Of a DNA stretch of 64,000 nucleotides, positions 1 through 13,636 are shown piece by piece; positions within the stretch are counted from its first letter, which is position 1; each line of letters starts with the position of its first letter. The stretch is taken from positions 23,141-87,140 of the forward strand of contig JAJECI010000001.1 in assembly GCA_022822065.1 (NCBI GenBank), written 5' to 3'. The notes beneath the pieces are model-generated. The model did no database searches. It had not been told where the DNA came from and saw only the letters and a list, made by a program, of their open reading frames with translations. The DNA comes from Candidatus Dadabacteria bacterium (GTDB taxonomy: Bacteria > Desulfobacterota_D > UBA1144 > Nemesobacterales > Nemesobacteraceae). The position numbers and the translations under genes were made by a program.

Positions 1-1220
1 AGAAAATCCAGAGTGAGGTGAAGCACCCCGGAGACCTCCTCTCGTATCTGGTCGGGTCGGCAGAATATGTGAGCGTCGTCCTGGGAGAACCCTCTCACTC
101 TCAGAAGACCGTGAAGAACCCCCGAGCGCTCGTACCTGTACACGGTTCCTATCTCCGCCCACCTGATCGGCAGGTCCCTGTAGCTTCTCGTTTTTGACTT
201 GTAGATCAGTATGTGGAAGGGGCAGTTCATTGGCTTTACCTGGTAATCGGAGTTTTCAACCTCCATGCACGAGAACATGTTCTGCGAGTAGAAATCCACG
301 TGACCGCTCGTGCGCCAGAGATCGAGCTTGGCCATATGCGGGGTGTAGAGCAGCTCGTAACCTTTGGAGACATGCTCCTGCTTCCAGAAATCCTCTATCA
401 CACTCCTTACCTTAGCCCCCCTCGGATGCCAGAGGATAAGGCCGGGACCTATCTCGTCGTTCACGCTGAAAAGATCAAGCTCCCTTCCAAGCTTGCGGTG
501 GTCCCTTTTCTTGGCCTCCTCAAGGTCGCGCAGATACTTGCGCAAGTCCTTTTTGTCCCAGAAGGCCGTTCCGTAAATTCTCTGGAGCATCGGGTTGTTC
601 TCGTTGCCCCTCCAGTAAGCCCCGGCGGAACTCGTGAGCTTAAAGGCCTTTATGAGACCGGTTGAGGGAAGATGGGGTCCCCTGCAGAGATCATACCAGT
701 CAGTCTGATCGTATATGGTTATCTCCTCCCCTTCGGGAAGGTCGTTTATTATCTCAACCTTGTAGTTCTCCTTTATCCCGGAGAAAGTGGCGATGGCCTC
801 CTCCCTCGTGACCGTTTTCCTCGTAAGAGGCCGGTTCTTCTTTATTACCTCAAGCATCTTCCCTTCGATGTTCTCAAGGTCCTCAGGAGTGAAGCCCCTT
901 TCGAAATCAAAGTCGTAGTAAAACCCGTTCTCTATCACGGGACCTATGGTGACCCGGGCCTCGGGGAAAAGAGACTGGACGGCTTCGGCCAGGACATGGG
1001 CCGCGGTGTGCCTAAGGAGCCCCAAAGACGTTTCGGTATTGCTTTTTACGGGCAAAAGATCGCAGTCGCCCTCAAGACGGTGCCAGAAATCAACGATCTG
1101 GCCGTCTATGGCGGCGCCTACGGTGCGCTTGTCTCCGTCAAGCTCCGCCAGCACTTCCCCAACGGTGATTCCCGAAGAAAACGTCCCCTGCTTCGCGTCG
1201 ATATTTACCTGTATATCCAA
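1..1220 (-). CDS. thrS: Threonyl-tRNA synthetase, N-terminal ~400 aa (the gene runs off the window start).
   Basis: The minus-strand translation has a TGS-like N-terminus (…VGEVLAEL…IDGQIVDFW…) and class-II aaRS motifs (HRKLGRELDLF, MNCPFH, RVRGFSQDDAHIF). The ORF is open at position 1. The start is probably a TTG near 1220, since there is no in-frame ATG. The provided + strand ORFs 213..665 and 672..1397 are antisense artefacts. Confidence 0.85.
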   Translation of the reverse strand, partial: MDIQVNIDAKQGTFSSGITVGEVLAELDGDKRTVGAAIDGQIVDFWHRLEGDCDLLPVKSNTETSLGLLRHTAAHVLAEAVQSLFPEARVTIGPVIENGFYYDFDFERGFTPEDLENIEGKMLEVIKKNRPLTRKTVTREEAIATFSGIKENYKVEIINDLPEGEEITIYDQTDWYDLCRGPHLPSTGLIKAFKLTSSAGAYWRGNENNPMLQRIYGTAFWDKKDLRKYLRDLEEAKKRDHRKLGRELDLFSVNDEIGPGLILWHPRGAKVRSVIEDFWKQEHVSKGYELLYTPHMAKLDLWRTSGHVDFYSQNMFSCMEVENSDYQVKPMNCPFHILIYKSKTRSYRDLPIRWAEIGTVYRYERSGVLHGLLRVRGFSQDDAHIFCRPDQIREEVSGVLHLTLDF

Positions 1221-1242
1221 CCGATTCGTCCTTTGACATACA

Positions 1243-1317
1243 TGGTGAGCACGGCAGGATTTGAACCTGCGACCCCTTGCACGTCAAGCAAGTGCTCTGC
1301 CACTGAGCTACGTGCTC
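1243..1317 (-). tRNA. tRNA-Val, anticodon GAC, CCA encoded.
   Basis: The reverse complement GAGCACGTAGCTCAGTGGCAGAGCACTTGCTTGACGTGCAAGGGGTCGCAGGTTCAAATCCTGCCGTGCTCACCA folds as a cloverleaf. It has a 7-bp acceptor stem, a GCTC/GAGC D-stem, the anticodon loop TTGACGT and a GGTTCAAATCC T-arm. Confidence 0.9.
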
Positions 1318-1384
1318 AAAAACCTGATATTGTCTTTAATTATCGCATATTGTCAATAACTGCGGGGACGCTTGAGAATGACGG

Positions 1385-2341
1385 TGGTTTCGGGTAGTTT
1401 CACCATTCAGTCAAAGCATCCCGCAAAAACGGGAATCAAGTGGCGGAACCATTCGCAAAACTATACTCAACACGGATTTCATCGGATTCGCAGAATCCAC
1501 CAGAGGCAAGGTAAGAGACATCTACGATCTCGGCGAGCGTATCCTGATGATAGCCACCGACCGCATCTCGGCCTTTGACGTGATACTCCCAAACGGAATA
1601 CCCGCAAAGGGCGAGGTTCTAAACCGCATCTCCGAGTTCTGGTTCAGAAAAACAGAGCACATCATCCCGAACCACATGATCTCGACGGACCCCGGGGATT
1701 TTCCCGAGCCTTTCGGGAACCACGCCGAGACGCTTGCAGGCCGCTCCATGCTCGTGAAAAAGACCGATCCGCTTCCCGTGGAATGCGTCGTGAGAGGTTA
1801 TATAAGCGGCTCGGGGTGGGAGGAGTACAAAAAAACCGGCTCCGTCTGCGCGATACCCCTCGGTGAGGGCCTCGTTGAATCCCAGAAACTTCCGGAACCC
1901 GTCTTCACCCCGTCAACCAAGGCCGAGCAGGGAACCCATGACGAGAACATAACGTTCGGGGAGGTGCAGGATATGATAGGCGGGGAACTCGCGGGCAAGG
2001 TGCGGGACGCAAGCATCGAGATCTACGCTGCCGCCGCCGGAATAGCCGAGGAGAAGGGAGTGATAATAGCCGATACGAAATTCGAGTTCGGCATAGACCG
2101 CGACACTGAAGAACTCATCCTGATAGACGAAGCCCTGACGCCGGATTCTTCAAGGTTCTGGCCCCTGGCGGACTACGCCCCCGGCGGACCACAGACGAGT
2201 TTTGACAAGCAGTTCGTAAGGGACTACCTCAAGCAGACAGGCTGGGACCGGAATCCCCCGGCTCCCGAGCTTCCGCCCGACATAGTGAGGAAAACAAGCG
2301 AAAAGTATCTTGAGATGCTCAGGCTTTTCTGCGGAGGATAG
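1385..2341 (+). CDS. purC: Phosphoribosylaminoimidazole-succinocarboxamide (SAICAR) synthase, long form.
   Basis: Motifs are …[26 protein letters not shown]… and …IADTKFEFG…. The listed ATG at 1547 is internal, because the conserved GKVRDIY block lies upstream. The frame opens after a stop at 1379-1381. The only canonical upstream start is GTG at 1385, so the true start is uncertain. The stop is TAG at 2339-2341. Confidence 0.8.
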
Positions 2342-2519: not shown

Positions 2520-3331
2520 TGAAGACCGTGAGCATCCTTGGCTGCGGCTGGCTCGGAGAGCCGCTCGCATACTCCCTCAAGGAAGCGGGTTTTTCGGTAA
2601 GAGGGTCGGTCAGGAAACCCGAGGGGCTCACCGCCCTTTCGCAAAAGGGAATAGAATCCTACCTTATAGACATAGCCCCCGAGGTAAACGGAGAGGAGAC
2701 AGACGAATTTTTCTCCTCGGACGTTCTTTTCATAAACTTTCCCCCCGAGCGAAGAGACGACATCGAGACTTACCACGAAAAACAGATCGAAAACCTCATC
2801 GGGGCGATACCGAACCCCCAGGGGAAAATGGTCATTTTTGCCAGTTCGACCTCCGTTTACCCGAATACAAACGGGGTCGTGCGCGAAGAGGACTCCCTCT
2901 ATCCTGACAAACCGTCGGGAAAGGCTCTTCTGCGCGTGGAGAGGCTTCTCACGGACCACCCTGAAATCGATACGACCGTCATACGTTTTTCGGGGCTCAT
3001 AGGCTACGACAGGGCGCCCATAAAATCGATCAGAAGAAAAAAACTGGTGCTTAACCCCAACTGCCCCCTTAACCTCATACACCGCGATGACTGCATAGGA
3101 ATCATTCGAAGCATAATAGATCTTGACGTAAGAAATACCATCCTCAACGCCACCTGCGACGAACATCCCACAAGAAGGGAATATTACTCGCGCGAAGCTC
3201 AAAAATACGGAATCCCGCCGCCGCTTTTCGAAACGGAAAATCCGCCGGAGTACAAGATAGTCTCAAACGAAAAGTTGAAGAGAACACTCGGGTACAGATT
3301 GATTTATCCGGACCCGCTCGGCATACCCTAG
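2519..3331 (+). CDS. NAD(P)-binding Rossmann-fold oxidoreductase, SDR/epimerase-like (YeeZ-like).
   Basis: N-terminal ILGCGWLG glycine-rich dinucleotide-binding motif, GTG start, 270 aa. Confidence 0.5.
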   Translation: MKTVSILGCGWLGEPLAYSLKEAGFSVRGSVRKPEGLTALSQKGIESYLIDIAPEVNGEETDEFFSSDVLFINFPPERRDDIETYHEKQIENLIGAIPNPQGKMVIFASSTSVYPNTNGVVREEDSLYPDKPSGKALLRVERLLTDHPEIDTTVIRFSGLIGYDRAPIKSIRRKKLVLNPNCPLNLIHRDDCIGIIRSIIDLDVRNTILNATCDEHPTRREYYSREAQKYGIPPPLFETENPPEYKIVSNEKLKRTLGYRLIYPDPLGIP

Positions 3332-3526
3332 AGAATGGACAGATTCCCCAGACAATGGGACATGATCTGAAAAGGGATAATTTCCTTTATTTTTAATAAG
3401 GCGCACATCTGGTATTCTTCATTCTTGGCAAACTACTTGTAGTTGCCTGTGCTTAATCTATTCTCAAAGTTGCGCTTCAGGGTCTAATTCACAGTTTTCG
3501 ATCGAGTTGCTTCTTTGGTTCACAAA

Positions 3527-3555
3527 TTGATAAGCTGAAACATACTTCTTAACAT
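3527..3555 (+). promoter_or_regulatory. Putative sigma70 promoter for the DUF262/DUF1524 gene.
   Basis: TTGATA (3527-3532), 17-nt spacer, TAACAT (3550-3555). An AGGAG RBS at 3571-3575 precedes the TTG start at 3583. Confidence 0.3.
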
Positions 3556-3582
3556 GTACGGATTTTTGTAAGGAGAAAATCC

Positions 3583-5691
3583 TTGAAAGCTTCAGAAGCT
3601 CAACTTTTTGGGGTTCTCAAGAAATCACCTCAATTCATCATTCCCATCTACCAGCGTACTTACTCGTGGAGAGAAAAAGAATGTCGTCAGCTATGGCATG
3701 ACATTGTCCGAGCTGGAAATAACGATGCGATACCGTTGCACTTTTTTGGTTCCATTGTCTACATCCAAGAAGGTCTTTCATTAATCACCCATCAAGAACC
3801 GCTACTCGTTATTGACGGCCAACAACGCCTAGCAACAGTTATGATACTCTTGGCCGCTTTGGCAGAAGCACTCGGCGACGAAAGCGAACCTATCGAGGGC
3901 TTTTCTGCCAGCAAACTACGCAATTACTATCTCTTAAACCCTAGCGAATCAGGTGAACGTCGCTATAAACTTCTCCTCTCCCAAACTGACAAAGAGACCC
4001 TTATTTCAATTGTTGATAAACGACAACTCCCTATGTCATACTCGCTTCGGCTCAAAAAGAACTTCGATCTATTCAAAGACCTTATTGCTGAACAACAAGG
4101 AGATTTAACCCCAATTTATAAAGGGGTGGCAAAATTAATTATCGTCGAAGTCGCCCTCGATCGTGATCAAGATAATCCACAGCTTATCTTCGAAAGTCTG
4201 AATTCGACAGGTCGCGAACTTAGCCAAGCAGATCTGGTCAGAAATTTTATTCTCATGGAACTGAAACCAGAAGCTCAAACCCGCATCTATAAAGAATTTT
4301 GGCAACCTATGGAGATAATGTTCGGACAAGAAGCGTATGAAACGGACTTCAACGAATTTATGCGATATTACTTGACTGTGAAAACAGGGGAAATTCCACG
4401 TCGCAATGATGTGTATGAAGTTTTTAAGGAATACGCCAGATCACAAAAGATTGCCGAGGAGAATATTGAGACTCTGGTCAACGATATTTACAGCTTTGCT
4501 AAGTTTTACTGTGCAATGGCTCTTGACCAAGAAACAGACTCTGACCTCAAACTCGCTTTTCATGACCTTCGAGAGTTGAAGATGGGCGTAGTCTACCCAT
4601 TCCTGCTGGAATTATACAAAGACTATATTGACGGACTGCTGACCAAAGAAAACTTTCTTAGGGCTATCAGGTTGATTGAGTCTTATCTTTTCCGGCGTTC
4701 TATATGCACGATCCCGACCAACTCGCTTAACAAAACTTTTGCCACGTTTACCAAGTCCTTGCAAAAAAACCGATACATCGAAAGTATTAAAGCACATTTC
4801 TTATTGTTGCAATCCTATCGCCGTTTTCCAGATGACCAAGAATTCAAACGTGATTTGCAGACTCGCAATCTGTATAACTTCAGAAATCGTAGCTACTGGC
4901 TACGTCGATTGGAAAACCACGATAAAAAAGAACGCGTTCCAGTCGACGAGTACACAATCGAGCATATTATGCCCCAGAACAAAGCCCTGCCCAATGGTTG
5001 GAAGGAAGCTCTCGGCAACGAATGGGAACGTGTTCATCAGACCTATTTGCATACATTGGGAAACTTGACGCTTACTGGGTACAACTCCGAGTATAGTGAT
5101 CACTCGTTCAAAGAGAAATGCAATATGGAAGGTGGTTTCAAGCACAGCCCTCTTAAGGTCAACTCAGGACTTAGTGAATGGAAAACGTGGGACGAAAATT
5201 CAATCAAATCCCGTGCTGAAATTTTAGCGGAGCAAATGGTGAAAATCTGGCAGGCACCCGTATTATCTGCCGAAATTCTTGAGAATTATAAGCCAAAAGA
5301 AAACAGAGCAATTGAGTACTCAATAGATAACTATTCGAATCTGTCGGACCCCCGAATTCGTGAACTCTTTGAAGCGTTTCGCAAAGAGGTTTTAGGGTTT
5401 GATCCATGCGTCTCAGAGGAACGCAGAAAAAACTATATCGCATACAAAGCGGAAACCAATTTCGTATATCTCAATCCGCAAGTAAATCAGCTTCGACTAA
5501 ACCTTATTATCAGCTTTTCAGACATAAATGACCCACGCGGTATTTGCGAGAATGTTCTTCCCAGCCAAGGACATAACCAAGCAAGCCGTGAAGTTGTTGT
5601 CAGGTTTAGAGAAATCGATAAATTACCTTACGTAGTCGGGTTAGCGCGTCAAGCCTTTGAAACACAGCTCGGAAATGGAGACAACACATAG
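3583..5691 (+). CDS. DUF262 (ParB-like NTPase/nuclease) plus DUF1524 (HNH-like) fusion protein. GmrSD/SspE/BrxU-family putative modification-dependent (type IV) restriction endonuclease.
   Basis: The N-terminus has IPIYQRTYSW and DGQQR motifs (DUF262). The C-terminus has …YTIEHIMPQN…LGNLTLTGYN… (DUF1524 HNH-like). It is 702 aa with a TTG start and an RBS, and sits in a lower-GC region. Confidence 0.75.
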   Translation: MKASEAQLFGVLKKSPQFIIPIYQRTYSWREKECRQLWHDIVRAGNNDAIPLHFFGSIVYIQEGLSLITHQEPLLVIDGQQRLATVMILLAALAEALGDESEPIEGFSASKLRNYYLLNPSESGERRYKLLLSQTDKETLISIVDKRQLPMSYSLRLKKNFDLFKDLIAEQQGDLTPIYKGVAKLIIVEVALDRDQDNPQLIFESLNSTGRELSQADLVRNFILMELKPEAQTRIYKEFWQPMEIMFGQEAYETDFNEFMRYYLTVKTGEIPRRNDVYEVFKEYARSQKIAEENIETLVNDIYSFAKFYCAMALDQETDSDLKLAFHDLRELKMGVVYPFLLELYKDYIDGLLTKENFLRAIRLIESYLFRRSICTIPTNSLNKTFATFTKSLQKNRYIESIKAHFLLLQSYRRFPDDQEFKRDLQTRNLYNFRNRSYWLRRLENHDKKERVPVDEYTIEHIMPQNKALPNGWKEALGNEWERVHQTYLHTLGNLTLTGYNSEYSDHSFKEKCNMEGGFKHSPLKVNSGLSEWKTWDENSIKSRAEILAEQMVKIWQAPVLSAEILENYKPKENRAIEYSIDNYSNLSDPRIRELFEAFRKEVLGFDPCVSEERRKNYIAYKAETNFVYLNPQVNQLRLNLIISFSDINDPRGICENVLPSQGHNQASREVVVRFREIDKLPYVVGLARQAFETQLGNGDNT

Positions 5692-6068
5692 AATAAGTTA
5701 GCTTCTGATCTTACGAGACAGAACCACCCCGTTCGTGTTTCTACATGCAAAGTCATTCAGGGCACTCTTGATTCCAATGCATGAATAATACCTCTCAAGC
5801 CACCTTTTAACCTTTAAAATTGTATTAAATATTGAAAACTTTCTTGGAATCCTAAAACATTTTTATACTATTTTCGCTGTCAAGATGCTTTGCAAATAGT
5901 CTTTAAGCACTTGTGCAATCCCGACCAACCATAGGCCGATTGGATGTCACCAGCGTTTCACCGCTGGACAGCAACAAAGTTCCACAGAAGAGGGAATTCC
6001 CGAATTTTCTTGAATTTTCCCGTTTTTTCTCACAAAATAATCAGCAACAACCAAGACGTGAGTCCGCT

Positions 6069-6248
6069 ATGTCCGATGAAATTATGACTCTCAAAGAAAT
6101 AGCTGAATACCTGAAACTGAAGGAGAAAACCGCTTACCGGCATGCTGCCGAAGGTATTTTGCCAGGGTTCAAAGTTGGTGGCGCATGGAGATTCAGAAAG
6201 GCGGACATCGATGCGTGGATCGAAAAAAACAAGAATTCCGCACAATGA
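6069..6248 (+). CDS. Small helix-turn-helix DNA-binding protein (excisionase/AlpA/MerR-like HTH_17 type), putative regulator coupled to the methyltransferase.
   Basis: MSDEIMTLKEIAEYLKLKEKTAYRHAAEGILPGFKVGGAWRFRKADIDAWIEKNK (60 aa). Its stop (6246-6248) overlaps the MTase ATG (6245) as ATGA. The listed longer ORF 5913..6248 has no support upstream of this Met. Confidence 0.55.
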   Translation: MSDEIMTLKEIAEYLKLKEKTAYRHAAEGILPGFKVGGAWRFRKADIDAWIEKNKNSAQ

Positions 6249-7783
6249 CGAAAAAGAGTAAAACCTATCCCGTAATTGATCTGTTTGCTGGGCCCGGAGG
6301 ATTGGGCGAAGGATTTGCATCTCTCAAAAATAAAAACGGCAAAGCTGCATTTGAGTCAGTTGCATCAATAGAAACGGACAAAACTGCTCATGACACATTG
6401 ACGCTCCGACATTTCTTCCGCTGCTTCCGGGAAGACCAGGTCCCCGAGGCCTATTACAGATATGTGTCTGGAGAAATTTCAAAGTCAGATTTAATCGAAC
6501 TTTATCCAAAGCAATGGAATATCGCCTGTGAAAGCTCATTGAATATAACTCTTGGAAGCGAAAACCACGAACTTGTAAAAAAGGCGATAAAAAAGCGTCT
6601 GGCTAGATCAAAAAACTGGGTTCTTGTTGGTGGGCCACCGTGTCAGGCTTATTCTCTTGTCGGACGTTCCCGCATGATGAGAATAGATGGATTTGAAAAA
6701 GATGAGAGACATTTTCTCTACCGCGAATACCTGAAGATAATTGTTGATCACAGGCCTCCGGTTTTCGTCATGGAGAACGTAAAGGGGCTTCTTTCTTCCA
6801 AGACCGATGGGGAATTTGTCGTTCAGAAAATTGTCGATGATCTTTCCAGTCCTATAAAAGCAGTTACGTCAAGACAGAATGGACTACGATACAACCTTTA
6901 CCCGCTTAGCTCTGCCCGGCTTTTCAAGCACGAAGTTGATCCTTGGGAATTCGTTGTCAGGGCTGAGGCTTATGGCATACCCCAAGCACGGCACCGGATG
7001 TTCGTTGTTGGCATCAGGGAAGATATTGATATCAGCCCATCCCCCCTTTCTCCTTCTGACCCTCCGAATGTAAAAAAGGTTATCGGCAACCTGCCTAGGA
7101 TCAGAAGTGGTGTATCTAAAGGCAGCGACTCTCCAGAAAGGTGGCGTTCTATTGTCTCAGAAGCTGCAGAAAGCACATGGCTGAGACAGTTAAGATCTTC
7201 TGATTATGAACGGCTAGTCTCAAAACTTGAGGCTGTAATTTCAAAAATTTCTCATGCTCCGCAACGAACAAGTGCAAAAACGTATAAATCGACACCTGTT
7301 CTGAATGGGTGGTTTTACGATGAACGACTGAAATCTCTTCTCTCACATGAAGCGCGCTCTCACATGCCCAGTGATCTTCATAGGTATCTTTTTGTATCAA
7401 CTTATGCTTCTGTTTTCAGATATTCACCAAAGCTTACAGATTTCCCAGATGCTCTTTTACCGAAGCATCGAAGTGCGTCTCGAGAAAGAAATCCTGTAGC
7501 TTTTTCTGATCGTTTCAGAGTTCAGCTTTGTGAGCGGGTAGCTACAACTATAACTTCACACATTTCAAAGGATGGTCATTATTTCATCCATTATGATCCG
7601 GTTCAATGTCGCAGCCTAACTGTTCGTGAAGCGGCAAGGTTGCAGACCTTTCCGGATAATTATCATTTTGAGGGACCCAGAACATCGCAATACCATCAAA
7701 TTGGTAACGCTGTTCCTCCCTATCTCGCAAGGCAGATTGCAGAAGTAATAAAAGAAGTCATGGACACACTGCCCGAAGACTGA
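6245..7783 (+). CDS. dcm: DNA (cytosine-5)-methyltransferase.
   Basis: Motifs are I DLFAGPGGLGEGF, IV GGPPCQAYS, VI VFVMENVKGL and X QIGNAVPPYLA. The start is taken at MTKKSKTYPVIDLF (6245). The listed start at 6185 overlaps the HTH gene. Confidence 0.9.
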   Translation: MTKKSKTYPVIDLFAGPGGLGEGFASLKNKNGKAAFESVASIETDKTAHDTLTLRHFFRCFREDQVPEAYYRYVSGEISKSDLIELYPKQWNIACESSLNITLGSENHELVKKAIKKRLARSKNWVLVGGPPCQAYSLVGRSRMMRIDGFEKDERHFLYREYLKIIVDHRPPVFVMENVKGLLSSKTDGEFVVQKIVDDLSSPIKAVTSRQNGLRYNLYPLSSARLFKHEVDPWEFVVRAEAYGIPQARHRMFVVGIREDIDISPSPLSPSDPPNVKKVIGNLPRIRSGVSKGSDSPERWRSIVSEAAESTWLRQLRSSDYERLVSKLEAVISKISHAPQRTSAKTYKSTPVLNGWFYDERLKSLLSHEARSHMPSDLHRYLFVSTYASVFRYSPKLTDFPDALLPKHRSASRERNPVAFSDRFRVQLCERVATTITSHISKDGHYFIHYDPVQCRSLTVREAARLQTFPDNYHFEGPRTSQYHQIGNAVPPYLARQIAEVIKEVMDTLPED

Positions 7784-8196
7784 TGACTGATATTTTGAGC
7801 AAAGAAAAGAGAAGCTGGAACATGTCCCGAATCCGTTCGGGAAACACAAAACCGGAAATTGCGGTTCGCCGTATTCTTCATTTCCTCGGATACAGGTTCA
7901 GACTGCACAGAAAGGACCTGCCCGGAAAGCCGGACATTGTTTTGCCGAAATACAAAACCGTTATCTTTGTTCATGGCTGTTTCTGGCACAGACATGAAAA
8001 CTGCCGGTACTCCTACAACCCGAAATCACGCACAAAATTCTGGCAGAATAAATTCGCAGCCAATATTGAGCGGGATAAACAGAATGCAGCAAAACTGGAA
8101 ATACTTGGTTGGCGACGGCTTGTGATCTGGGAATGTGAGACAAAGAACCCGGAGAATATTCGCTCCATTATTGAACGGTTCTTTGAAAAAATTTGA
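7783..8196 (+). CDS. vsr: Very short patch repair endonuclease.
   Basis: RSGNTKPE…GKPDIVLPKY…VIFVHGCFWHRHENC signature. The ATG overlaps the dcm stop (TGATG at 7781-7785). Confidence 0.9.
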   Translation: MTDILSKEKRSWNMSRIRSGNTKPEIAVRRILHFLGYRFRLHRKDLPGKPDIVLPKYKTVIFVHGCFWHRHENCRYSYNPKSRTKFWQNKFAANIERDKQNAAKLEILGWRRLVIWECETKNPENIRSIIERFFEKI

Positions 8197-8342
8197 GATT
8201 TAAAGGCCTTCTGCTCACATATATTAGCCCTCTTACTTTCATATATTCACTAATTTTCGACATATATACTGCATATATATCTGCATAGACGTATCAAATC
8301 TACCCTTAAAATGATACATTTGGCATTTATATATGAAATATA

Positions 8343-8371
8343 TTGACAATATTACATCGTTGGTGTATACT
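8343..8371 (+). promoter_or_regulatory. Near-consensus sigma70 promoter driving the four-gene candidate operon.
   Basis: TTGACA (8343-8348), 17-nt spacer, TATACT (8366-8371). An AGGAGA RBS at 8383-8388 precedes the ATG at 8395. It lies in an AT-rich region with CATATAT-type repeats. Confidence 0.5.
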
Positions 8372-8394
8372 TACCCTTAAACAGGAGACTGGTA

Positions 8395-8625
8395 ATGCGC
8401 GATAAACGTAAAAAATTTGTTGAGCTGGCAGAAGCCAGAGTGAACCGTGCAGTTAAAGATATCCGGCTTATCGGCAATCTCTCCAACCGAGGTTCTTATG
8501 AATATTCAGAGCAAGATGCGCGCGAGATTTTCAAGGCACTCCAAAAGGAACTTGACGCTGCAAAAAGCAGGTTCTCTGAAAATGGTGAGGGTGGAGTCGA
8601 TTCATTTCGACTGAGCAGTCGCTGA
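8395..8625 (+). CDS. 76-aa hypothetical protein, charged and probably helical or coiled-coil. It is the first gene of the candidate operon.
   Basis: Good RBS and promoter. No recognisable motif. A 6-bp-stem hairpin (8595-8612) lies in the 3' end. Confidence 0.5.
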   Translation: MRDKRKKFVELAEARVNRAVKDIRLIGNLSNRGSYEYSEQDAREIFKALQKELDAAKSRFSENGEGGVDSFRLSSR

Positions 8626-8672
8626 TATTTGAAACGCAGACAGTAAAGAACATTTGTTTATAAGAGGTACAA

Positions 8673-10598
8673 TTGATGAGTGAAATACGACTTGAATTTT
8701 TGCCCAATGTAGGAGGGGAAGCCGAGGGCCTCAGTGATGGGGGCATAGAAACTTTTCGCGAAAATCCATTCGCCGCTGTTGCCCGTGAAACAGGCCAGAA
8801 CAGCCGCGACGCCCGCGACGATACTAATAACCCAGTAAAACTTACTTTCGACATCGTGACGCTAGAGTCAGAGAAATTTCCGTCTATCGAGCAGTACAGA
8901 GAAGCCGCCGAACTTTGTCTGGATAAATCATCCGCGGCAAATAAAGAGAAGGAAACGGGCTTCTTCGGGAATGCTTGCAAAATTCTTAATGCCGAAAATA
9001 TCAGGATTCTCAGAATTTCAGATTTCAATACAAAAGGCGTTCGTGGACCATGTAAAGAGGGTACCCCCTTCCATACGCTTGCTAAAACTGACGGCGTCAG
9101 TGAAAAGGAGGACAGAGACTCTGGTGGTTCTTTCGGCATAGGCAAGAACGCAACCTTTGCCCTTTCAGATATCCAGACTGTCTTCATTTCAACTCTCTAC
9201 ACAGATGAGAACGGAAACGGTCAGGTTCTCTGTATGGGAAAAACATTATTTATTTCTCATAGAGGAAACGATGGGGAGGAGAAAAGGGGGAAAGGATACT
9301 GGGGCAAGTCAGAAAGATATATGCCGTTAGACAGCCCCAGTGAAATTCCGGAATGGCTTCTGCGTGATAAACAGGGAACCTCAATTTTCTCCATCTGCAT
9401 GCGTGACAACCGGACAGACTGGCGCTACGAAATGGCAGCAGCAATACTGATCAATTTTTTCTGCTCTATAGAGCGCCAAGAAATGGAATTTGAAATTGAT
9501 GAGGGGTCGATCAAAATTAATCGTGGAACACTTCAGGCACTTTTCAGCAACAGCCGGGTCAACAAAGCTGTAGATGAGCTTAATGCACGTGTCGCGTTTG
9601 AAACAGCGAGAACCCTCCATGCCTGTCTGATTGATGAGCAGACTTTCATAGAAAATCTGGAGATCGAAGACTTGGGAACGGTCCGCATGCATATGCTGAT
9701 GCGTGACGGCCTTGGATATACAATCGGTATCATCCGTAACGGCATGTATATCACCGACAATCTCTCCCATTTTAACGAACCCTTCAAACGCTTTCCGCTC
9801 CACCGTGATTTTGCTGTAATTATTGAGCCCGTCGGTAAAAGAGAAGGTGAGTGGTTCAAACGACTTGAGAATCCCAGTCATAACAGTCTGTCTGCAGAGG
9901 GAATAACCGACCCTGAACTCAGAGCCAAGGGGCGTAAAGCTTTTGAGAAACTTGCAAAAAAAATACGCAGCAGAATCCAAGCGTTGGCCAAGTCACAGCC
10001 GTCGAATACACTGGAGCTCGATGAACTGAATGATTTCTTCGCCTCGGATGAAACAAGAAGCGAAGATGATGCCGGAATGGAAACAGATCCCCAATCAAAA
10101 AAGCCCACGCCTGTCAGGCCTGTAAAACCCAAGCCACCAACTCCTGATTCCCGCAAACAAACTTCACCAGATGACCCTCCTATCCCCGGACCCGAACCCG
10201 GACCTGAACCAGTTGATGAACCCTCTCCAGATCCGGAGCCACGACCGGAGCCCGGACCAGTACCACATCCAAGGAAGATCATGAAACCAGTTGAATTGAT
10301 ATCAGAACGTGCCCTGATACCGGACAAGTCAAATGCGAGCAGAAGGCAGTTCAGATTCACTTCGCCCATTTCTGCAGAGATCGTGCTCTATGCCGATGCA
10401 ACCGGCTTGACAAACTCTGAACGTCTAAACCCAGTAAGCACATCGGAAGGCCGAATCGAGAACAGTGCTATTGAAGTGTCTTGCACAGCGAATCAGCGTA
10501 ACAGCATTGATGTGGTCTTTGATGCCCCTTATACCGGCCCTGTCGAAATCTTAGCTTACCAAGTTGAAGAAGAACAACAGGCAGGAGAGTCGGCATGA
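8673..10598 (+). CDS. GHKL-superfamily (MORC/MutL/Hsp90-like, HATPase_c_3-type) ATPase with a Pro/Glu/Gly-rich linker and a C-terminal domain of unknown function.
   Basis: Bergerat-fold motifs are the N-box AVARETGQNSRDA (ExxxNSxDA, nt ~8787-8816), a G1-like ISDFNTKGVRG and the G2 box GGSFGIGKNA (nt ~9124-9150). A PEPGPEP-rich linker is at ~10080-10280. The start is TTG at 8673 or ATG at 8676, with an AAGAGG RBS. The stop overlaps the next gene's ATG (ATGA at 10595-10598). Confidence 0.7.
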   Translation: MMSEIRLEFLPNVGGEAEGLSDGGIETFRENPFAAVARETGQNSRDARDDTNNPVKLTFDIVTLESEKFPSIEQYREAAELCLDKSSAANKEKETGFFGNACKILNAENIRILRISDFNTKGVRGPCKEGTPFHTLAKTDGVSEKEDRDSGGSFGIGKNATFALSDIQTVFISTLYTDENGNGQVLCMGKTLFISHRGNDGEEKRGKGYWGKSERYMPLDSPSEIPEWLLRDKQGTSIFSICMRDNRTDWRYEMAAAILINFFCSIERQEMEFEIDEGSIKINRGTLQALFSNSRVNKAVDELNARVAFETARTLHACLIDEQTFIENLEIEDLGTVRMHMLMRDGLGYTIGIIRNGMYITDNLSHFNEPFKRFPLHRDFAVIIEPVGKREGEWFKRLENPSHNSLSAEGITDPELRAKGRKAFEKLAKKIRSRIQALAKSQPSNTLELDELNDFFASDETRSEDDAGMETDPQSKKPTPVRPVKPKPPTPDSRKQTSPDDPPIPGPEPGPEPVDEPSPDPEPRPEPGPVPHPRKIMKPVELISERALIPDKSNASRRQFRFTSPISAEIVLYADATGLTNSERLNPVSTSEGRIENSAIEVSCTANQRNSIDVVFDAPYTGPVEILAYQVEEEQQAGESA

Positions 10599-11428
10599 AG
10601 CTGAATGAGAGAATGCGTTATCCGCACCCTGTTCTAAGCAAATTTTCCTCCGATTATACGACTGGGGAGTTTTCTGCGGCTTTCTCTCATCAGGTTACTG
10701 ATGACGACCAGTTGAAAATTGCTTCAGACTTGTCCACTGACTGTGATGAATTGAGAGTTCTTATCGAAGATCAGAAGGCTTCCGCAGGATATTTTGTTGT
10801 ATGCAGACCCACATATTTCAACCACCTTCAGCTCGTTCCACTCGGAGAGTCAGAAAAATTCTTTGAATTGAGTCAACTTTATGGAGCGGTTTCTCTGCGT
10901 CCCGTAATATGGACCCTTGAAGATGTCGAAAATTATTCGAGCCCTTTAATTGACGCTGAATTCGGCAAGGAAATTGTCATAACAAAAGGTGTAGTTATAG
11001 CTATGGGGCGAGAGTTCCAGTTTTCTATTGATCAACAGAAATTCAAACCATTTGAAACCATATTCGACCTAGCTCAGAGCAAAGACATCAAACCGGGAAT
11101 GATCGAAGTTGATCCTGAAGGGGACAAAATTACAATTCTAGCAGAACCGGAAACCTACAATTCTATCGCCAACATGCGAAATATCCTTCAGGGACGCACA
11201 ATTCTTATTAACGCTGTCTACATGCCAGCCGTCATGGACATTGTCTCAAGACTTCAGACAGACGGCCCAAGCTTGGAGAGCAAACGCTGGTACAGAGTTT
11301 TCAAGGCAAAATGCGACGATATTGGCATCAATCCGTCAGATAAGACCTTCTTGCCTCTTGAGGTTGCACAGGAACTTCTGAGAGGCCCTCTAAAGGCAAC
11401 CATACAAGTCATGGAGTCCATGAGATGA
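10595..11428 (+). CDS. 277-aa hypothetical protein, third gene of the candidate operon.
   Basis: Translationally coupled on both sides by ATGA overlaps. I recognise no conserved motifs. Confidence 0.5.
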   Translation: MKLNERMRYPHPVLSKFSSDYTTGEFSAAFSHQVTDDDQLKIASDLSTDCDELRVLIEDQKASAGYFVVCRPTYFNHLQLVPLGESEKFFELSQLYGAVSLRPVIWTLEDVENYSSPLIDAEFGKEIVITKGVVIAMGREFQFSIDQQKFKPFETIFDLAQSKDIKPGMIEVDPEGDKITILAEPETYNSIANMRNILQGRTILINAVYMPAVMDIVSRLQTDGPSLESKRWYRVFKAKCDDIGINPSDKTFLPLEVAQELLRGPLKATIQVMESMR

Positions 11429-12180
11429 ATGAACCTCTTAAGTATCTCTCGGACAGGGCGTTGTCAGAACTTAGAAACTCTATCTCGGAAAATATTGAGC
11501 GGTATACAGGCAATGGTTTTGAGGAATATGCTTTTCTGCCGTCATGGGATATCTCTCTGAAAATCAACTTCGACAAGAATCTCCTTGCTACGCTTGATAC
11601 GAAACGGCAACGCGCAATTGTCGAGATTGATCTTGCAAATTCAAAAATTGTCGGCAAGGCACTGGAAAACCTGACGCCATCACTGGCGAATGAAGAGCGC
11701 ATCTGGGTTCGTCTTTCTCATCTGGAAGCATTTGAATACAGTAGAATACGCTGGCTTACAGGAAAAGAAGGTGAGTATCTTGTTTCCTCCATAGAAAGAC
11801 ATTTCTTTGCGCCCACTCAAACAATCATCCGTGATGACCATGCACTGTCGCGACTATGGTGGAACTATCATATTGCACGAACCTGCATGCCAGACAATAT
11901 AGATAAGGCTTTAGAGCTTATCCTGAAAACCGCTGACATCAGAAGTAACTTTGTCGAGCGAATCTGGATGAGCAGCCGCAGAAACATCGCAGGTGCTGTT
12001 CTGCGGGCAATGGATACACAGGAATGGATTACCGATGCCGAACAGAACTTTCGCGAGTTCATGAAAGTACTCAACCGTCAAGGCGGCGGAATCGTTTTTG
12101 AAGCCCTGAGCGAGTCAGAAGCCGATGCATTTGTTCAGGAATGTACAGACCGAGCAATGAACATAATGGGAGCAGTTTAA
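11425..12180 (+). CDS. 251-aa hypothetical protein, last gene of the candidate operon.
   Basis: ATGA overlap with the upstream gene. No recognisable motifs. An AT-rich non-coding region follows. Confidence 0.5.
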   Translation: MNEPLKYLSDRALSELRNSISENIERYTGNGFEEYAFLPSWDISLKINFDKNLLATLDTKRQRAIVEIDLANSKIVGKALENLTPSLANEERIWVRLSHLEAFEYSRIRWLTGKEGEYLVSSIERHFFAPTQTIIRDDHALSRLWWNYHIARTCMPDNIDKALELILKTADIRSNFVERIWMSSRRNIAGAVLRAMDTQEWITDAEQNFREFMKVLNRQGGGIVFEALSESEADAFVQECTDRAMNIMGAV

Positions 12181-12430
12181 TTCTAAATATTATTCCAATT
12201 CAGGGTTGTGCCCTCAGCGGACTCCAAGAAAAAATAGACGTTTCACAAGGCTCGGGTTCGTCTGCGCCCGCCGTCGATTTGTCATTCCGTTTGCATACCC
12301 CCGTTCGCCACGAGGCTTGTTTGCCCTTGCTTTTATGTTCTTAAAAGTTATTTTTTCGTTTTTTCTTCATTCATTATGGATAATAATTCACCTGAAAATA
12401 GTAAAAATATCAGAGAATTAGAACAAAAAA

Positions 12431-12459
12431 TTGATATTTCTTCAATATACCGTTATTAT
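12431..12459 (+). promoter_or_regulatory. Putative sigma70 promoter for the Panacea-domain pair.
   Basis: TTGATA (12431-12436), 17-nt spacer, TATTAT (12454-12459). Confidence 0.35.
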
Positions 12460-12488
12460 CATGACCGAAAGTCAAATGGGAGAGTCCG

Positions 12489-12962
12489 GTGGCACGGATT
12501 AAAAGTACCGTTCAGGATGTCGCAAAATATATCCTGAAGAGGCTTGCTTCTAAGGGTGAAGATAACATCACTTCTTGGAAGCTTCAAAAATTAGTTTATT
12601 ACTGTCAAGCGTGGTCGTTAGTCTGGGAGGAGGCCCCTCTTTTCTTGGAAGAAATACAAGCTTGGGCCGATGGGCCGGTCTGTCCTGACCTTTACCATAA
12701 ACATAAGCGTAAATTCAGGCTTGACCCTGATGATATTAAGGGAAACACAAGGAAGTTGTCTCCCAGTCAGCGAGAAACGATTAATGCTGTTTTGGACTAC
12801 TACGGAGATAAAACAGGACGCTACTTAAGCGACCTTACACATCTTGAAAGACCATGGATTGAGGCTCGTGCTGGTTTACAACCTGGGGAGAGAGGTAGTG
12901 TTGTAATTGAGTATAACGACATGGTTGATTACTATGGCGGCTTAATTAATAGTGCCGAGTAG
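12489..12962 (+). CDS. Panacea-domain (DUF4065, SocA/GepA-like) protein, putative antitoxin.
   Basis: …SWKLQKLVYYCQAWSLVWEEAPLFLEEIQAWADGPVCPDLY… matches the DUF4065 core. GTG start, 157 aa. Confidence 0.65.
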   Translation: MARIKSTVQDVAKYILKRLASKGEDNITSWKLQKLVYYCQAWSLVWEEAPLFLEEIQAWADGPVCPDLYHKHKRKFRLDPDDIKGNTRKLSPSQRETINAVLDYYGDKTGRYLSDLTHLERPWIEARAGLQPGERGSVVIEYNDMVDYYGGLINSAE

Positions 12963-13407
12963 TAAAAAGAAGAAACTAACTAGAAAACCTAAGCAAGACC
13001 AAAACCCAGCAACTCTTTCAAAGACCCCTAAATCGATTTCCACAAGTGTTAGCAATGAACACTTCCGCTGGGATGTAAGGAACGCTGACTTTGATGGCGA
13101 GTACGGATGGAAGAAGGTTGAGATAAAAACTTTGTTCCGAGAAATCATTCCTAAACTCAGACAGTTTGAAAGCATGAAGTGGGGAGAAATTGAGGGAGAG
13201 GATAGTCATTTTGTTGATGTGGATAAGTGTAGTACAGAAGCTCAGAAACGCTTGAAAAGAATTAAACTAGATGACTTGGAACAGCTGTTCTCTTTGCGAA
13301 TAGGGGGCAAAAAGCGGATATTTGGCTGGCGGGAAAAATCAGTTTTTCATGTGCTTTGGTGGGATCCAGACCATAAAGTTTATCCGTCAAAAATGAAGTA
13401 CACTTAA
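12952..13407 (+). CDS. 151-aa basic hypothetical protein, putative toxin partner of the Panacea protein.
   Basis: Its GTG start overlaps the upstream gene by 11 nt. It has a Lys-rich N-terminus and a conserved-looking FHVLWWDPDHKVYP block. Confidence 0.4.
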   Translation: MPSSKKKKLTRKPKQDQNPATLSKTPKSISTSVSNEHFRWDVRNADFDGEYGWKKVEIKTLFREIIPKLRQFESMKWGEIEGEDSHFVDVDKCSTEAQKRLKRIKLDDLEQLFSLRIGGKKRIFGWREKSVFHVLWWDPDHKVYPSKMKYT

Positions 13408-13636
13408 TTCCTAACTGACATTGTATACAATCTCCCAAAGTCCCCTTTTCAAAAATCCCCTGAATTTTTGGCTAGCTATGTATGTTATTCCCTCTGAAAG
13501 CTGTTGAGAAAAACCTTAAAAAAGGGGAAAATAGACGGAAGTGGAAAGCGAAATTGCACAATATCGTTTTCGGGTGGGAGCAAAAACCATAAAATTTCCA
13601 GACACGGAGCGTAATTTCTCCCGCGCGGCAGCCTAG

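Follow-up and report, generated by a model that had tools for sequence, protein, structure and literature searches.

The open reading frame at 8673–10598 on the forward strand of the window (the whole 64,000-nucleotide stretch of Candidatus Dadabacteria DNA analyzed here) encodes what motifs and a structural model support as a real, very divergent GHKL plus transducer ATPase, its activity being predicted. This gene (A) belongs to a conserved, translationally coupled cassette, S-A-B-C, made of the PADLOC candidate PDC-M33 (genes A, B, and C) plus an unannotated gene for a 76-aa protein (S). The cassette is horizontally mobile and, in nearly all well-flanked loci, lies close to genes for a C5-cytosine methylase (Dcm) and/or for Vsr. 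This linkage of PDC-M33 to Dcm/Vsr is a new observation. The features of the window are as follows.

6185–7783, forward strand: C5-cytosine DNA methyltransferase, 532 aa, long, DrmMII-like (Pfam DNA_methylase, E = 7.6e-49; PADLOC DrmMII, E = 1.9e-94)
7783–8196, forward strand: Vsr very-short-patch repair endonuclease (Pfam Vsr, E = 9e-33)
8204–8343: AT-rich region with repeated CATATAT motifs, preceding the putative promoter
8343–8371, forward strand: putative sigma-70-like promoter of S-A-B-C, TTGACA-17-TATACT (11/12 consensus match)
8395–8625, forward strand: ORF S, 76 aa, probable fourth cassette gene by conservation and position, outside the PADLOC model
8676–10598, forward strand: gene A, PDC-M33A, 640 aa (PADLOC PDC-M33A, E = 9.5e-97; AF2, pLDDT 81; Foldseek)
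8676–9410, forward strand: GHKL (Bergerat-fold) ATP-binding domain of A, residues 1–245 (invariant motifs in 37 + 6 homologues)
8781–8813, forward strand: N-box ARETGQNSRDA, residues 36–46 (string checked in place)
9021–9038, forward strand: G1 box DFNTKG, residues 116–121 (string checked in place)
9123–9146, forward strand: ATP-lid/G2 box GGSFGIGK, residues 150–157 (string checked in place)
9411–10043, forward strand: transducer/S5-like middle domain and long helix of A, residues 246–456 (Foldseek alignments to GHKL plus transducer chains)
9735–9746, forward strand: family signature RNGM in the middle domain
9867–9881, forward strand: family signature ENPxH in the middle domain
10044–10274, forward strand: disordered Pro/Asp/Glu-rich linker of A, residues 457–533 (pLDDT below 50, composition)
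10275–10595, forward strand: C-terminal beta-sandwich of A (Ig-like), ordered residues 535–631 (AF2)
10595–11428, forward strand: gene B, PDC-M33B, 277 aa, no known domain (PADLOC, E = 2.7e-43)
11425–12180, forward strand: gene C, PDC-M33C, Pfam DUF6339, 251 aa (Pfam, E = 9e-42; PADLOC, E = 2.5e-29)

The preliminary description had reported in this frame the strings ARETGQNSRDA, DFNTKG, and GSFGIGK, followed by a Pro-rich linker, and all are found in place. The likely start codon of gene A, at 8676, is an ATG that follows the Shine–Dalgarno sequence AAGAGG, located 8 nt upstream; the homologues start with MSEI or MSKI. At E ≤ 1e-3, 478 database proteins are related to the product, and the relatives occur in at least 323 species among about 185,600 species genomes, in many phyla and on plasmids. 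Given these matches and the invariant motif residues, the frame is not a chance one.

The conservation of the motifs was followed in 37 homologues and in six distant ones at 22%–30% identity. None of the residues E38, N42, D45, D116, T119, G121, G151, G154, G156, and K157 varies, even as overall identity falls from 88% to 22%. Motif I, the N-box (ExxxNxxD), reads R37-E38-T-G-Q41-N42-S-R-D45 and sits on the helix 31–45. Motif II (G1) comes after the strand 108–117 and reads D116-F-N-T119-K-G121-V-R-G124, with the non-canonical spacing DxxTxG and not DxGxG. The DFNTKG string had been called less canonical, which holds for the spacing, but its invariance marks it as a genuine equivalent of G1/motif II. 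Motif III (G2, GxxGxG) is the invariant G150-G151-S-F-G154-I-G156-K157; residues 148–155, which bear it, have pLDDT below 50 in the AF2 model, as expected of a flexible ATP lid. Candidates for motif IV are T168, S172, and T173 (strand 168–176), invariant in the 37 homologues but not all so in the distant set. In the middle domain, R354, G356, M357, E398, P400, and H402 are invariant.

The AF2 model, made without templates, is ordered over residues 1–456, with pLDDT above 90 across most of residues 1–443. A Bergerat fold is apparent in this predicted structure: Foldseek matches residues 1–456 to five GHKL plus transducer proteins, with a probability of 1.00 each, namely Topo VI-B (9o0g_B, E = 5e-9), TRAP1 (4z1i, E = 1e-7), MORC2 (9cdg, E = 2e-6), GyrB (3zkb, E = 4e-6), and MORC4 (7k7t, E = 3e-5). 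The alignments to such chains extend over 470–770 columns. Sequence searches do not find the relationship. None of the 37 family members matches a GHKL model in Pfam at E ≤ 1, including HATPase_c_3, with which the preliminary description had proposed to check the assignment, and searches of PDB sequences (phmmer, hmmsearch) give no GHKL match. NCBIfam gives a single match (E = 0.007, sub-threshold), in which the G2 box region aligns to a sacsin ATP-binding-like domain, and hhalign against a neighboring Mza-type HATPase_c_3 GHKL protein returns a probability of 0.5%. Because no sequence profile recognizes gene A, the GHKL assignment rests on motifs and predicted structure. With the invariant motifs and the five structural matches, the earlier proposal of a MutL/MORC-type GHKL ATPase is well borne out.

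MORC and paraMORC ATPases, which combine GHKL and S5 domains, occur in restriction-modification (RM) operons that contain Dcm and Vsr (PMC2292703). Gene A shares with them the GHKL plus transducer/S5 architecture with intact ATP motifs and the presence in mobile operons together with genes for C5-cytosine methylases and Vsr, where EcoRII-like or HNH nucleases are frequent too; like gene A, several paraMORC families have C-terminal extensions of their own. In the predicted structure, a GHKL domain is followed by an S5-type fold (an alpha/beta domain at residues 246–400), with alignments of 470–515 columns to the MORC2 and MORC4 ATPase modules. On the other hand, the MORC S5 motif GhXhhpXXRhl is absent: the corresponding segment, G347-Y-T-I-G-I-I-R354-N-G-M, has its Arg one residue out of register and departs from the motif in its order of polar and hydrophobic positions (judged by eye), and the MORC-type profile (HATPase_c_3) does not retrieve the family. 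Since both the S5 signature and detectability by profile are absent, gene A is not in the MORC family proper; of the MORC resemblance suggested earlier, the predicted GHKL plus S5/transducer fold stands. The cassette also differs from MORC/paraMORC operons in having, instead of an SFII helicase or a recognizable nuclease, the proteins B, DUF6339, and S, and gene A lacks the HxH C-terminal motif of paraMORC5. The gene A family may equal one of the families paraMORC1–5.

With MutL, the likeness is an analogy of plan only: an N-terminal GHKL plus transducer module, a long disordered Pro-rich linker, and a small C-terminal domain. In the genome, gene A lies next to the gene for Vsr, and MutL is known to stimulate this nuclease (PMC2292703). 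However, gene A has no Pfam or NCBIfam match to the MutL families DNA_mis_repair and MutL_C, no MutL chain is among the significant Foldseek matches, and the predicted C-terminal domain is a beta-sandwich and not the MutL dimerization/endonuclease fold. A third relative in design is VcSduA, a fusion of GHKL and Shedu that is validated against phage and in which ATPase mutants abolish defense (PMC12137116). As in this paraMORC3-type Shedu protein, the GHKL ATPase of gene A is proposed to control an anti-phage effector. VcSduA is, however, a single polypeptide that joins GHKL to a DUF4263 PD-(D/E)xK nuclease, and its HATPase_c domain is detectable with Pfam, whereas the partners in the cassette are separate proteins and the cassette is linked to methylases.

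The linker (77 aa, 25 of them Pro, including IPGPEPGPEP) has pLDDT below 50 throughout residues 457–533, in agreement with the flexible linker described earlier. Its length and composition differ among homologues, and it is alignable in 18 of 71 loci. The C-terminal domain, which reads IMKPVELISERALIPDK...VEILAYQVEEEQ (10275–10595), had also been recognized as separate, and the AF2 model places the boundaries alike; it is predicted to form a sandwich of 9–10 strands (pLDDT about 90). Its Foldseek matches are weak (FN3-, CBM35-, Asf1-, and CsgH-like, E between 0.02 and 0.4). Residue R545 is invariant even among homologues at 22% identity. As a whole, the domain evolves fast, with a median identity of 33%, like that of B (33%), against 46% for the GHKL domain. 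The PADLOC model of PDC-M33A aligns to residues 4–484 only, so that the C-terminal domain is divergent from the seed sequences. For this domain, MutL-like dimerization or the docking of a partner is as possible as the sensor/effector tether suggested in the preliminary description.

Genes A, B, and C are adjacent and co-directional, in the order FAM_02818>>FAM_02838>>FAM_01881 of PDC-M33. The start of B overlaps the stop of A (ATGA), and the start of C overlaps the stop of B in the same way. B accompanies A in 74 of 80 loci and C does so in 72; the loci that miss B or C are mostly contigs that end or break inside the cassette. S is directly upstream of A in 44 of the 80 loci and also on plasmids of Priestia, Planococcus, Arthrobacter, Deinococcus, and L. 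salivarius. With a median identity of 60%, S is the most conserved component of the cassette; it has no match in Pfam, PDB profiles, or PHROGs. Gene B has no Pfam match for any single member and no PDB sequence match. For gene C, a PDB profile search gives no match. The AF2 model of DUF6339, built on database homologues that are at least 56% identical, is mostly helical (pLDDT 93.5, pTM 0.90) and has no structural neighbor by Foldseek (best E = 1.0 in PDB and 2.8 in BFVD). Residues Y27, H99, R109, H126, R136, D137, D138, R143, R173, and E178 of DUF6339 are invariant or nearly so.

In the window, the Dcm methylase and Vsr immediately upstream of the cassette agree with the RM-like setting that had been suggested. 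Across the 58 well-flanked loci (flanks of at least 6 kb), Dcm and/or Vsr lie within 10 kb of the cassette in 55 (95%), in varied order and orientation, with Vsr itself in 51. A Dcm-like gene clusters with the cassette in 69 of 80 loci, and the linkage to Dcm/Vsr is also present on plasmids of Deinococcus, Arthrobacter, Planococcus, and Priestia. Some Firmicute cassettes (Lactococcus, Enterococcus, L. salivarius) lack an annotated C5 methylase in the parts that were inspected. The linkage could partly come from co-mobilization. At least 41 loci contain a type II restriction enzyme; the restriction partners are often of the EcoRII, MvaI, Sau3AI, or AlwI type, and HNH, LlaJI-type, and type I enzymes occur too. 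In about 20 loci, the window included, no restriction enzyme was identified and the arrangement is Dcm-Vsr-S-A-B-C only. A specific link to CCWGG, prompted by the EcoRII and MvaI partners, was rejected in view of the Sau3AI/MutH-, AlwI-, and LlaJI-type partners and of the varied DrmMII specificities.

The cassette of the window sits in a 10-kb islet of low GC, together with GmrSD and a SocA toxin–antitoxin pair; no Rfam RNA family was found in the islet. At other loci, the neighbors include AbiG, Shedu, AIPR, Mza-like genes, and type I RM genes. PADLOC chose PDC-M33 as one of 145 candidates because it was embedded in systems of the BREX, DISARM, or type I RM kind (guilt-by-embedding) (cassette CAS_00129, with a count of 98 beside the entry) (Payne et al., bioRxiv 10.1101/2024.01.29.577857). 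In the searchable text and supplements of that source, no domains are assigned to the proteins, and neither a fourth small gene nor the Dcm/Vsr linkage is mentioned. Our search found no literature on PDC-M33, on DUF6339, or on GHKL with Vsr and a methyltransferase in defense.

GHKL clamps (MutL, MORC, Topo VI-B, Hsp90) play key roles in DNA repair, in the silencing of chromatin, and in DNA topology. Bacterial GHKL relatives in RM operons were reportedly predicted in 2008; to our knowledge, few of them have been tested. The gene A family is widespread although invisible to the sequence profiles tried. For S-A-B-C, we slightly favor a candidate role as an RM-coupled defense module in which A acts as an ATP-gated clamp or switch resembling MutL and MORC. 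ATP binding would dimerize the GHKL domains of A, as in MutL, MORC, and Topo VI-B, and dimerized A would form this clamp or switch on DNA. Its C-terminal domain, held by the tether, may itself dimerize or dock one of the partners B, C, or S. The resulting complex would serve as an anti-phage/anti-plasmid module coupled to restriction-modification, with the neighboring methylase presumably marking self DNA. DUF6339 is the probable effector, its conserved His, Asp, Arg, and Glu residues looking enzyme-like; this step is conjecture because no nuclease, helicase, or DNA-binding domain is recognizable in A, B, C, or S (Pfam and PDB profiles; Foldseek for C). The near-obligate pairing with cytosine methylase/Vsr gives PDC-M33 a concrete, testable hypothesis, and the cassette offers a compact bacterial model of how a MORC/MutL-like ATPase could couple an epigenetic mark to a DNA transaction. 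DUF6339 and protein B are flagged as possible new effector or sensor folds.

Two points speak against the RM-coupled model: a methylase that already has a type II enzyme at its locus has no obvious need of another restriction partner, and the Firmicute cassettes mentioned above have no annotated C5 methylase in the parts inspected.

In a bolder and less likely form of the RM-coupled model, S-A-B-C would represent a new class of methylation-coupled immunity. The MutL-like clamp, together with B, DUF6339, and S, would read C5-methylation, or the T:G/Vsr-processed state, and would destroy or silence unmarked DNA. DUF6339 would then be a nuclease or effector fold not seen before, and, in the roughly 20 loci with Dcm-Vsr-S-A-B-C only, the methylase would have no restriction arm other than the cassette.

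The MutL-like plan of A also suggests an accessory to very-short-patch repair, in which A, as a MutL surrogate, would stimulate Vsr at the T:G mismatches that arise by deamination of 5-methylcytosine. B, C, and S would aid mismatch recognition or hand-off, and with the cassette any host could carry a C5 methylase at a smaller cost in mutations. E. coli MutL does interact functionally with Vsr (PMC2292703 and its ref. 18), and the proximity of Vsr holds whatever the restriction enzyme (EcoRII-, MvaI-, AlwI-, or Sau3AI-type, or none). However, no Vsr or Dcm is present in the stretches examined around some cassettes: that of L. salivarius, between type I RM genes, that of Enterococcus, which adjoins AIPR, and that of Lactococcus, which adjoins AbiG with an AlwI-type enzyme nearby. 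Most bacterial Dcm-Vsr pairs must lack the cassette, since relatives of A are found in only the 323 or more species counted above. The neighbors of the cassette are defense genes and mobile elements, and, as Vsr nearly always accompanies Dcm, the link of the cassette may be to the methylase. We consider a role in repair unlikely.

PrrC guards EcoprrI, and S-A-B-C, instead of restricting DNA itself, could similarly monitor the neighboring RM system or the methylation state of DNA and kill or arrest the cell if a phage inactivates or escapes that system. Such a guard or abortive-infection module would suit a cassette that lies within or beside RM systems of various types and has no recognizable nuclease of its own, and Abi genes adjoin it on a Lactococcus plasmid. 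B and the C-terminal domain of A, the fastest-evolving ordered parts, behave as expected of contacts with variable partners or phage proteins. Nevertheless, the restriction partners are structurally unrelated (EcoRII-C, MvaI/BcnI, HNH, MutH/Sau3AI, AlwI, type I), or none is identified, which argues against a guard acting through specific protein–protein contacts. We consider this role, too, unlikely.

An Hsp90/sacsin-like chaperone, or another ATPase not acting on DNA, that hitch-hikes incidentally in islands beside RM genes would account for the rank of TRAP1, an Hsp90, as second-best structural match and for the weak sacsin-like match, below the cut-off. We consider it very unlikely: the six significant matches include MORC and GyrB and are headed by Topo VI-B, the operon partners are not co-chaperone-like, and hitch-hiking falls far short of explaining how often Dcm/Vsr linkage recurs in different phyla and arrangements. 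A sensor histidine kinase catalytic domain, which the preliminary description had named as the identity that would overturn its own, shares the Bergerat-fold motifs only (one of the 37 homologues has a non-significant Pfam His_kinase match, E = 0.15) and is rejected as practically negligible, since no HisKA/DHp, HATPase_c, or response-regulator partner was found in the gene or its neighbors (Pfam, PADLOC), the GHKL domain begins at residue 1, the GSFGIGK box with a transducer typifies the MutL/MORC/Hsp90/topoisomerase branch, and each of the six Foldseek matches at E ≤ 0.001 has a transducer domain, with no kinase among them.

The profile of gene B covers 2,569 clusters at 50% identity. In a search of the representative library, the best 150 matches are all close relatives of the same length, with no informative fusion among them. 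One protein, P0359, joins the N-terminal half of a methylase to the last 105 residues of B; a Rosetta-stone fusion between Dcm and B was considered and rejected, as the protein is most likely a deletion chimera.

The ~10-kb islet that holds the cassette (3300–13600) is low in GC, 41–47% vs. 51–57% in the flanks, and is bounded by purC/an oxidoreductase gene on one side and by PhoH/purA/hisS-like/serA/tatC on the other. Four systems lie close together in it: GmrSD, Dcm-Vsr, S-A-B-C (S, a small ORF; A, B, and C, PDC-M33A, PDC-M33B, and PDC-M33C), and a SocA-type toxin–antitoxin pair.

Features of the islet
3583–5691, +, GmrSD-type type IV restriction enzyme (702 aa; GmrSD_N + GmrSD_C + C-terminal DUF5655)
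6185–7783, Dcm, a 532-aa DrmMII-like C5 methylase
7783–8196, Vsr
8343–8371, putative near-consensus sigma-70 promoter (11/12 match) ahead of S
8395–8625, +, S, 76-aa ORF directly 5′ of A, with a good ribosome-binding site
8676–10598, +, A, 640 aa (PADLOC PDC-M33A, E=9.5e-97)
10595–11428, +, B, 277 aa (PADLOC PDC-M33B, E=2.7e-43)
11425–12180, +, C, 251 aa (PADLOC PDC-M33C, E=2.5e-29; Pfam DUF6339, E=9e-42)
12489–13407, +, SocA/Panacea-domain antitoxin (157 aa) and 151-aa partner, overlapping genes

The ORF 8673–10598 (+) of the preliminary description is real. Its ATG at 8676 is almost certainly the biological start, with a Shine-Dalgarno AAGAGG 8 nt 5′ of it and the same start Met in homologues. 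ORFs overlapping A on the opposite strand have no comparable homologue support. A is matched by 478 database proteins and is clearly under purifying selection; with patterns specific to its subfamily, relatives were found in 323 of ~185,600 species genomes. With very high confidence, A belongs to a PDC-M33 operon. The stop of A overlaps the start of B and the stop of B that of C (both ATGA); A is translated together with B and C, and it is probably co-transcribed with S. The latter is present in 44/80 loci, also on plasmids (Priestia, Planococcus, Arthrobacter, Deinococcus, L. salivarius), and is the best-conserved component (median identity 60% vs. 46% for the GHKL domain); we treat it as the fourth gene of the cassette. 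The vsr-S intergenic region (8204–8343) is AT-rich and adjoins the strong promoter-like site. Six or more CATATAT(A) repeats occur in it, along with several imperfect palindromes, e.g., TGCATATATAT/ATATATCTGCA, and these sequences may be operator sites.

Sequence profiles are blind to protein A. The route proposed earlier for recognizing a GHKL domain (Pfam/HMMER, HATPase_c_3) failed: Pfam gave nothing at E≤1 for A or any of 37 family members, NCBIfam only a sub-threshold match of the G2-box region to a sacsin ATP-binding-like domain, and PDB sequences (phmmer and profile searches) only matches confined to the low-complexity linker. Aligned by hhalign with a Pfam-recognized HATPase_c_3 GHKL protein from some of the same loci, A reached a probability of 0.5%. 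The motifs quoted in the preliminary description are all in place: the N-box ARETGQNSRDA (residues 36–46, 8781–8813), DFNTKG (116–121), and the G2 box GGSFGIGK (150–157). From 88% down to 22% identity, Firmicute plasmid homologues included, residues E38, N42, D45, D116, T119, and G121 are invariant, as is the stretch G151-S-F-G-I-G-K157.

A template-free AlphaFold2 model drew on 37 homologues and came out confident (mean pLDDT 81; >90 across most of residues 1–443), with low values over the ATP-lid segment, as expected of a mobile lid. Foldseek against the PDB returned six matches at E≤0.001 from five proteins, all with probability 1.00: Topo VI-B (5e-9), TRAP1/Hsp90 (1e-7), two chains of MORC2 (2e-6 and 6e-6), the GyrB ATPase region (4e-6), and MORC4 (3e-5). 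In all six, a GHKL domain is followed by a transducer/S5-like domain. The earlier reading as a GHKL ATPase agrees with this predicted fold and with the invariant motif residues, and we consider it highly probable; the model gives A a GHKL+transducer fold with conserved catalytic motifs. The transducer region carries two more invariant family signatures, R354-N-G-M and E398-N-P-x-H402, and a long helix (residues 413–437) precedes the disordered linker. Residues C81, C126, and C317 (8916–8918, 9051–9053, 9624–9626) are invariant in the 37 homologues, with not all retained in the most distant ones, and H402 (9879–9881) is invariant at all depths; if spatially close, the four may constitute a metal or redox site.

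The linker comprises 77 residues (457–533), among them 25 Pro, contains the string IPGPEPGPEP, and varies among homologues in length and composition, Pro/Glu-rich here and Gly/Asp-rich elsewhere. The C-terminal region, beginning KIMKPVELISERALIPDK, is predicted to form a β-sandwich of ~100 residues (535–631, pLDDT ~90) with R545 invariant at all depths; its Foldseek neighbors are just weak Ig/FN3/CBM35/Asf1/CsgH-like ones (E 0.02–0.4). The separate domain behind a linker, as first described, is therefore also found in the model, and the plan of A is an ATPase module, a Pro-rich tether, and a small C-terminal domain. MutL shares this plan (ATPase module, disordered tether, small C-terminal domain) but differs in the C-terminal fold, and its DNA_mis_repair and MutL_C domains are absent from A. 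A shares its genomic niche with the MORCs and paraMORCs described from RM operons (Iyer et al. 2008; PMC2292703). It lacks the S5 signature of the MORC family, GhXhhpXXRhl, and has no profile similarity to it. Of the proposed MORC/MutL type, the predicted fold holds; A is neither a MORC in the family sense nor a MutL. Compared by description, A differs from paraMORCs in having neither an SFII-helicase partner nor the paraMORC5-type HxH motif, which, with its invisibility to profiles, argues for a separation from these sparsely described families.

In Payne et al. (10.1101/2024.01.29.577857), PDC-M33 is among 145 candidates picked from within BREX, DISARM, or type I RM systems ("guilt-by-embedding"); the table there gives it as cassette CAS_00129 and lists a count of 98 next to it. 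A-B-C is a member of this PADLOC entry, a catalogue placeholder rather than a characterized system, and the searchable literature gave no mention of PDC-M33 or DUF6339. New with respect to the literature searched are the predicted fold of A, its predicted domain plan (like that of MutL but ending in an Ig-like domain), the conserved gene S, and the near-obligate Dcm/Vsr linkage together with a DUF6339 protein without structural neighbor in the PDB or BFVD. The Dcm/Vsr context is the main new result.

In the 80 loci surveyed around relatives of A, B accompanies A in 74/80 and C in 72/80, and most loci missing either have contig ends or breaks within the cassette. Among the 58 loci flanked by ≥6 kb of sequence on each side, a Dcm-like methylase and/or Vsr lies ≤10 kb from the cassette in 55 (95%), and Vsr in 51. 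These partners occur on either side of the cassette and in both orientations. About 20 loci, the window included, combine a long Dcm (43–56% identical to that of the window), usually Vsr, and S-A-B-C, with no restriction enzyme identified. The RM-linked pattern recurs in distant plasmid cassettes, in which A is 24–28% identical (ATPase module only).

Distant cassettes and exceptions
Deinococcus plasmid: Dcm-Vsr-x-S-A-B-C
Arthrobacter plasmid: dcm-vsr-REase-DUF3320-S-A-B-C-Shedu
Planococcus plasmid: AlwI-Vsr-Dcm-S-A-B-C
Priestia plasmid: S-A-B-C, then MutH/Sau3AI-type REase and dcm
L. salivarius (exception): type I hsdS/hsdM on one side, further RM genes on the other
Enterococcus (exception): directly 3′ of an AIPR gene
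Lactococcus (exception): adjoining AbiGI/GII, AlwI-type enzyme nearby

Since the partner enzymes recognize differing sequences, what the loci have in common is not a single target site but a module of C5 methylase and Vsr or, in a looser sense, an RM module. Relatives occur on just 4 of 2.9 million IMG/VR contigs, which marks the cassette as an element of islands or plasmids and not a phage gene. It is mobile, is linked genetically to C5-methylase/Vsr modules, and belongs to the GHKL-ATPase-containing, methylase-linked RM-like modules.

A is predicted to work in the manner of GHKL+S5 ATPases of the MORC/paraMORC/MutL class. ATP binding would dimerize its N-terminal domains into a gated clamp or conformational switch, a step established for MutL, MORC, GyrB, Topo VI-B, and Hsp90. 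The tethered C-terminal domain would keep the two subunits joined, as in MutL, or recruit B, C, or S. From the context and by comparison (PMC2292703), the module may act on DNA in RM-like defense, the methylase marking self. C, with an enzyme-like conservation pattern (Y27, H99, R109, H126, R136, D137, D138, R143, R173, E178), is conjectured to be the effector; its mostly helical model is very confident (pLDDT 93.5, pTM 0.90), with no significant structural neighbor (best E=1.0 in the PDB, 2.8 in BFVD). B and the C-terminal domain of A, the fastest-evolving ordered parts (median identity ~33%), are conjectured to be variable recognition surfaces. We lean, somewhat beyond even chances, toward this whole package of an ATP-gated clamp or switch in an RM-coupled defense module with its proposed effector. 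The domain plan shared with MutL and the linkage to Vsr would also suit a MutL surrogate in Vsr-dependent very-short-patch repair, but some cassettes have no Dcm/Vsr within the stretch examined and the neighbors are defense-island genes, making this unlikely. A PrrC-like guard of RM systems is likewise improbable, as the partner enzymes are structurally diverse and absent at some loci. A chaperone-like role away from DNA is very doubtful, and a histidine kinase, the case that would have overturned the first assignment, can be set aside almost entirely, with no kinase among the six Foldseek matches at E≤0.001. The cassette is worthwhile and experimentally tractable; its status as a defense candidate was already flagged, and the mechanism is inferential.

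Few polar residues are invariant in B, for which relatives of known function were not detected. A search with the B profile in a library of 1.84 billion proteins yields 2,569 clusters at 50% identity (1,881 with E≤1e-10), and despite this number the family has no Pfam model; the best 150 of these clusters are all stand-alone proteins of ~275 aa. In a 359-aa JGI metagenome protein (P0359), a C5 methylase cut down to its N-terminal half (motifs I–VIII) runs into the final 105 residues of a B protein (55% identical). This chimera most likely arose by a deletion spanning Vsr-S-A-B or in assembly, and is less likely to be a functional fusion.

On the Enterococcus faecalis plasmid NZ_CP102071.1 (L087, 5731–10494), the AIPR-family gene is directly upstream of A-B-C, co-directional, and occupies the position of S; AIPR also occurs in Mza-type GHKL clusters beside Dcm at L007, L013, and L048. 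The C5 methylases at loci without an identified restriction enzyme form an unusually long subfamily (~500–560 aa; window 6185–7783, L006, L009–L011, L014, L026, L049, L061–L063, L067, L069, L075), with DISARM DrmMII as top PADLOC match. In the window, the GmrSD-DUF5655 gene (3583–5691) is the first of the islet and matches PADLOC Orf5 (E=2e-188). The pair at 12489–13407 has its own promoter-like site (12431–12459); the 151-aa partner of SocA matches NCBIfam MAG6450, phrog_8366, and the C-terminus of PADLOC NsnC, and the two probably form a toxin–antitoxin or Abi module. The mechanical ORF 672–1397 (+) has no Pfam match and encloses a tRNA-Val(GAC) gene (1243–1317, −), and is therefore probably not a gene.
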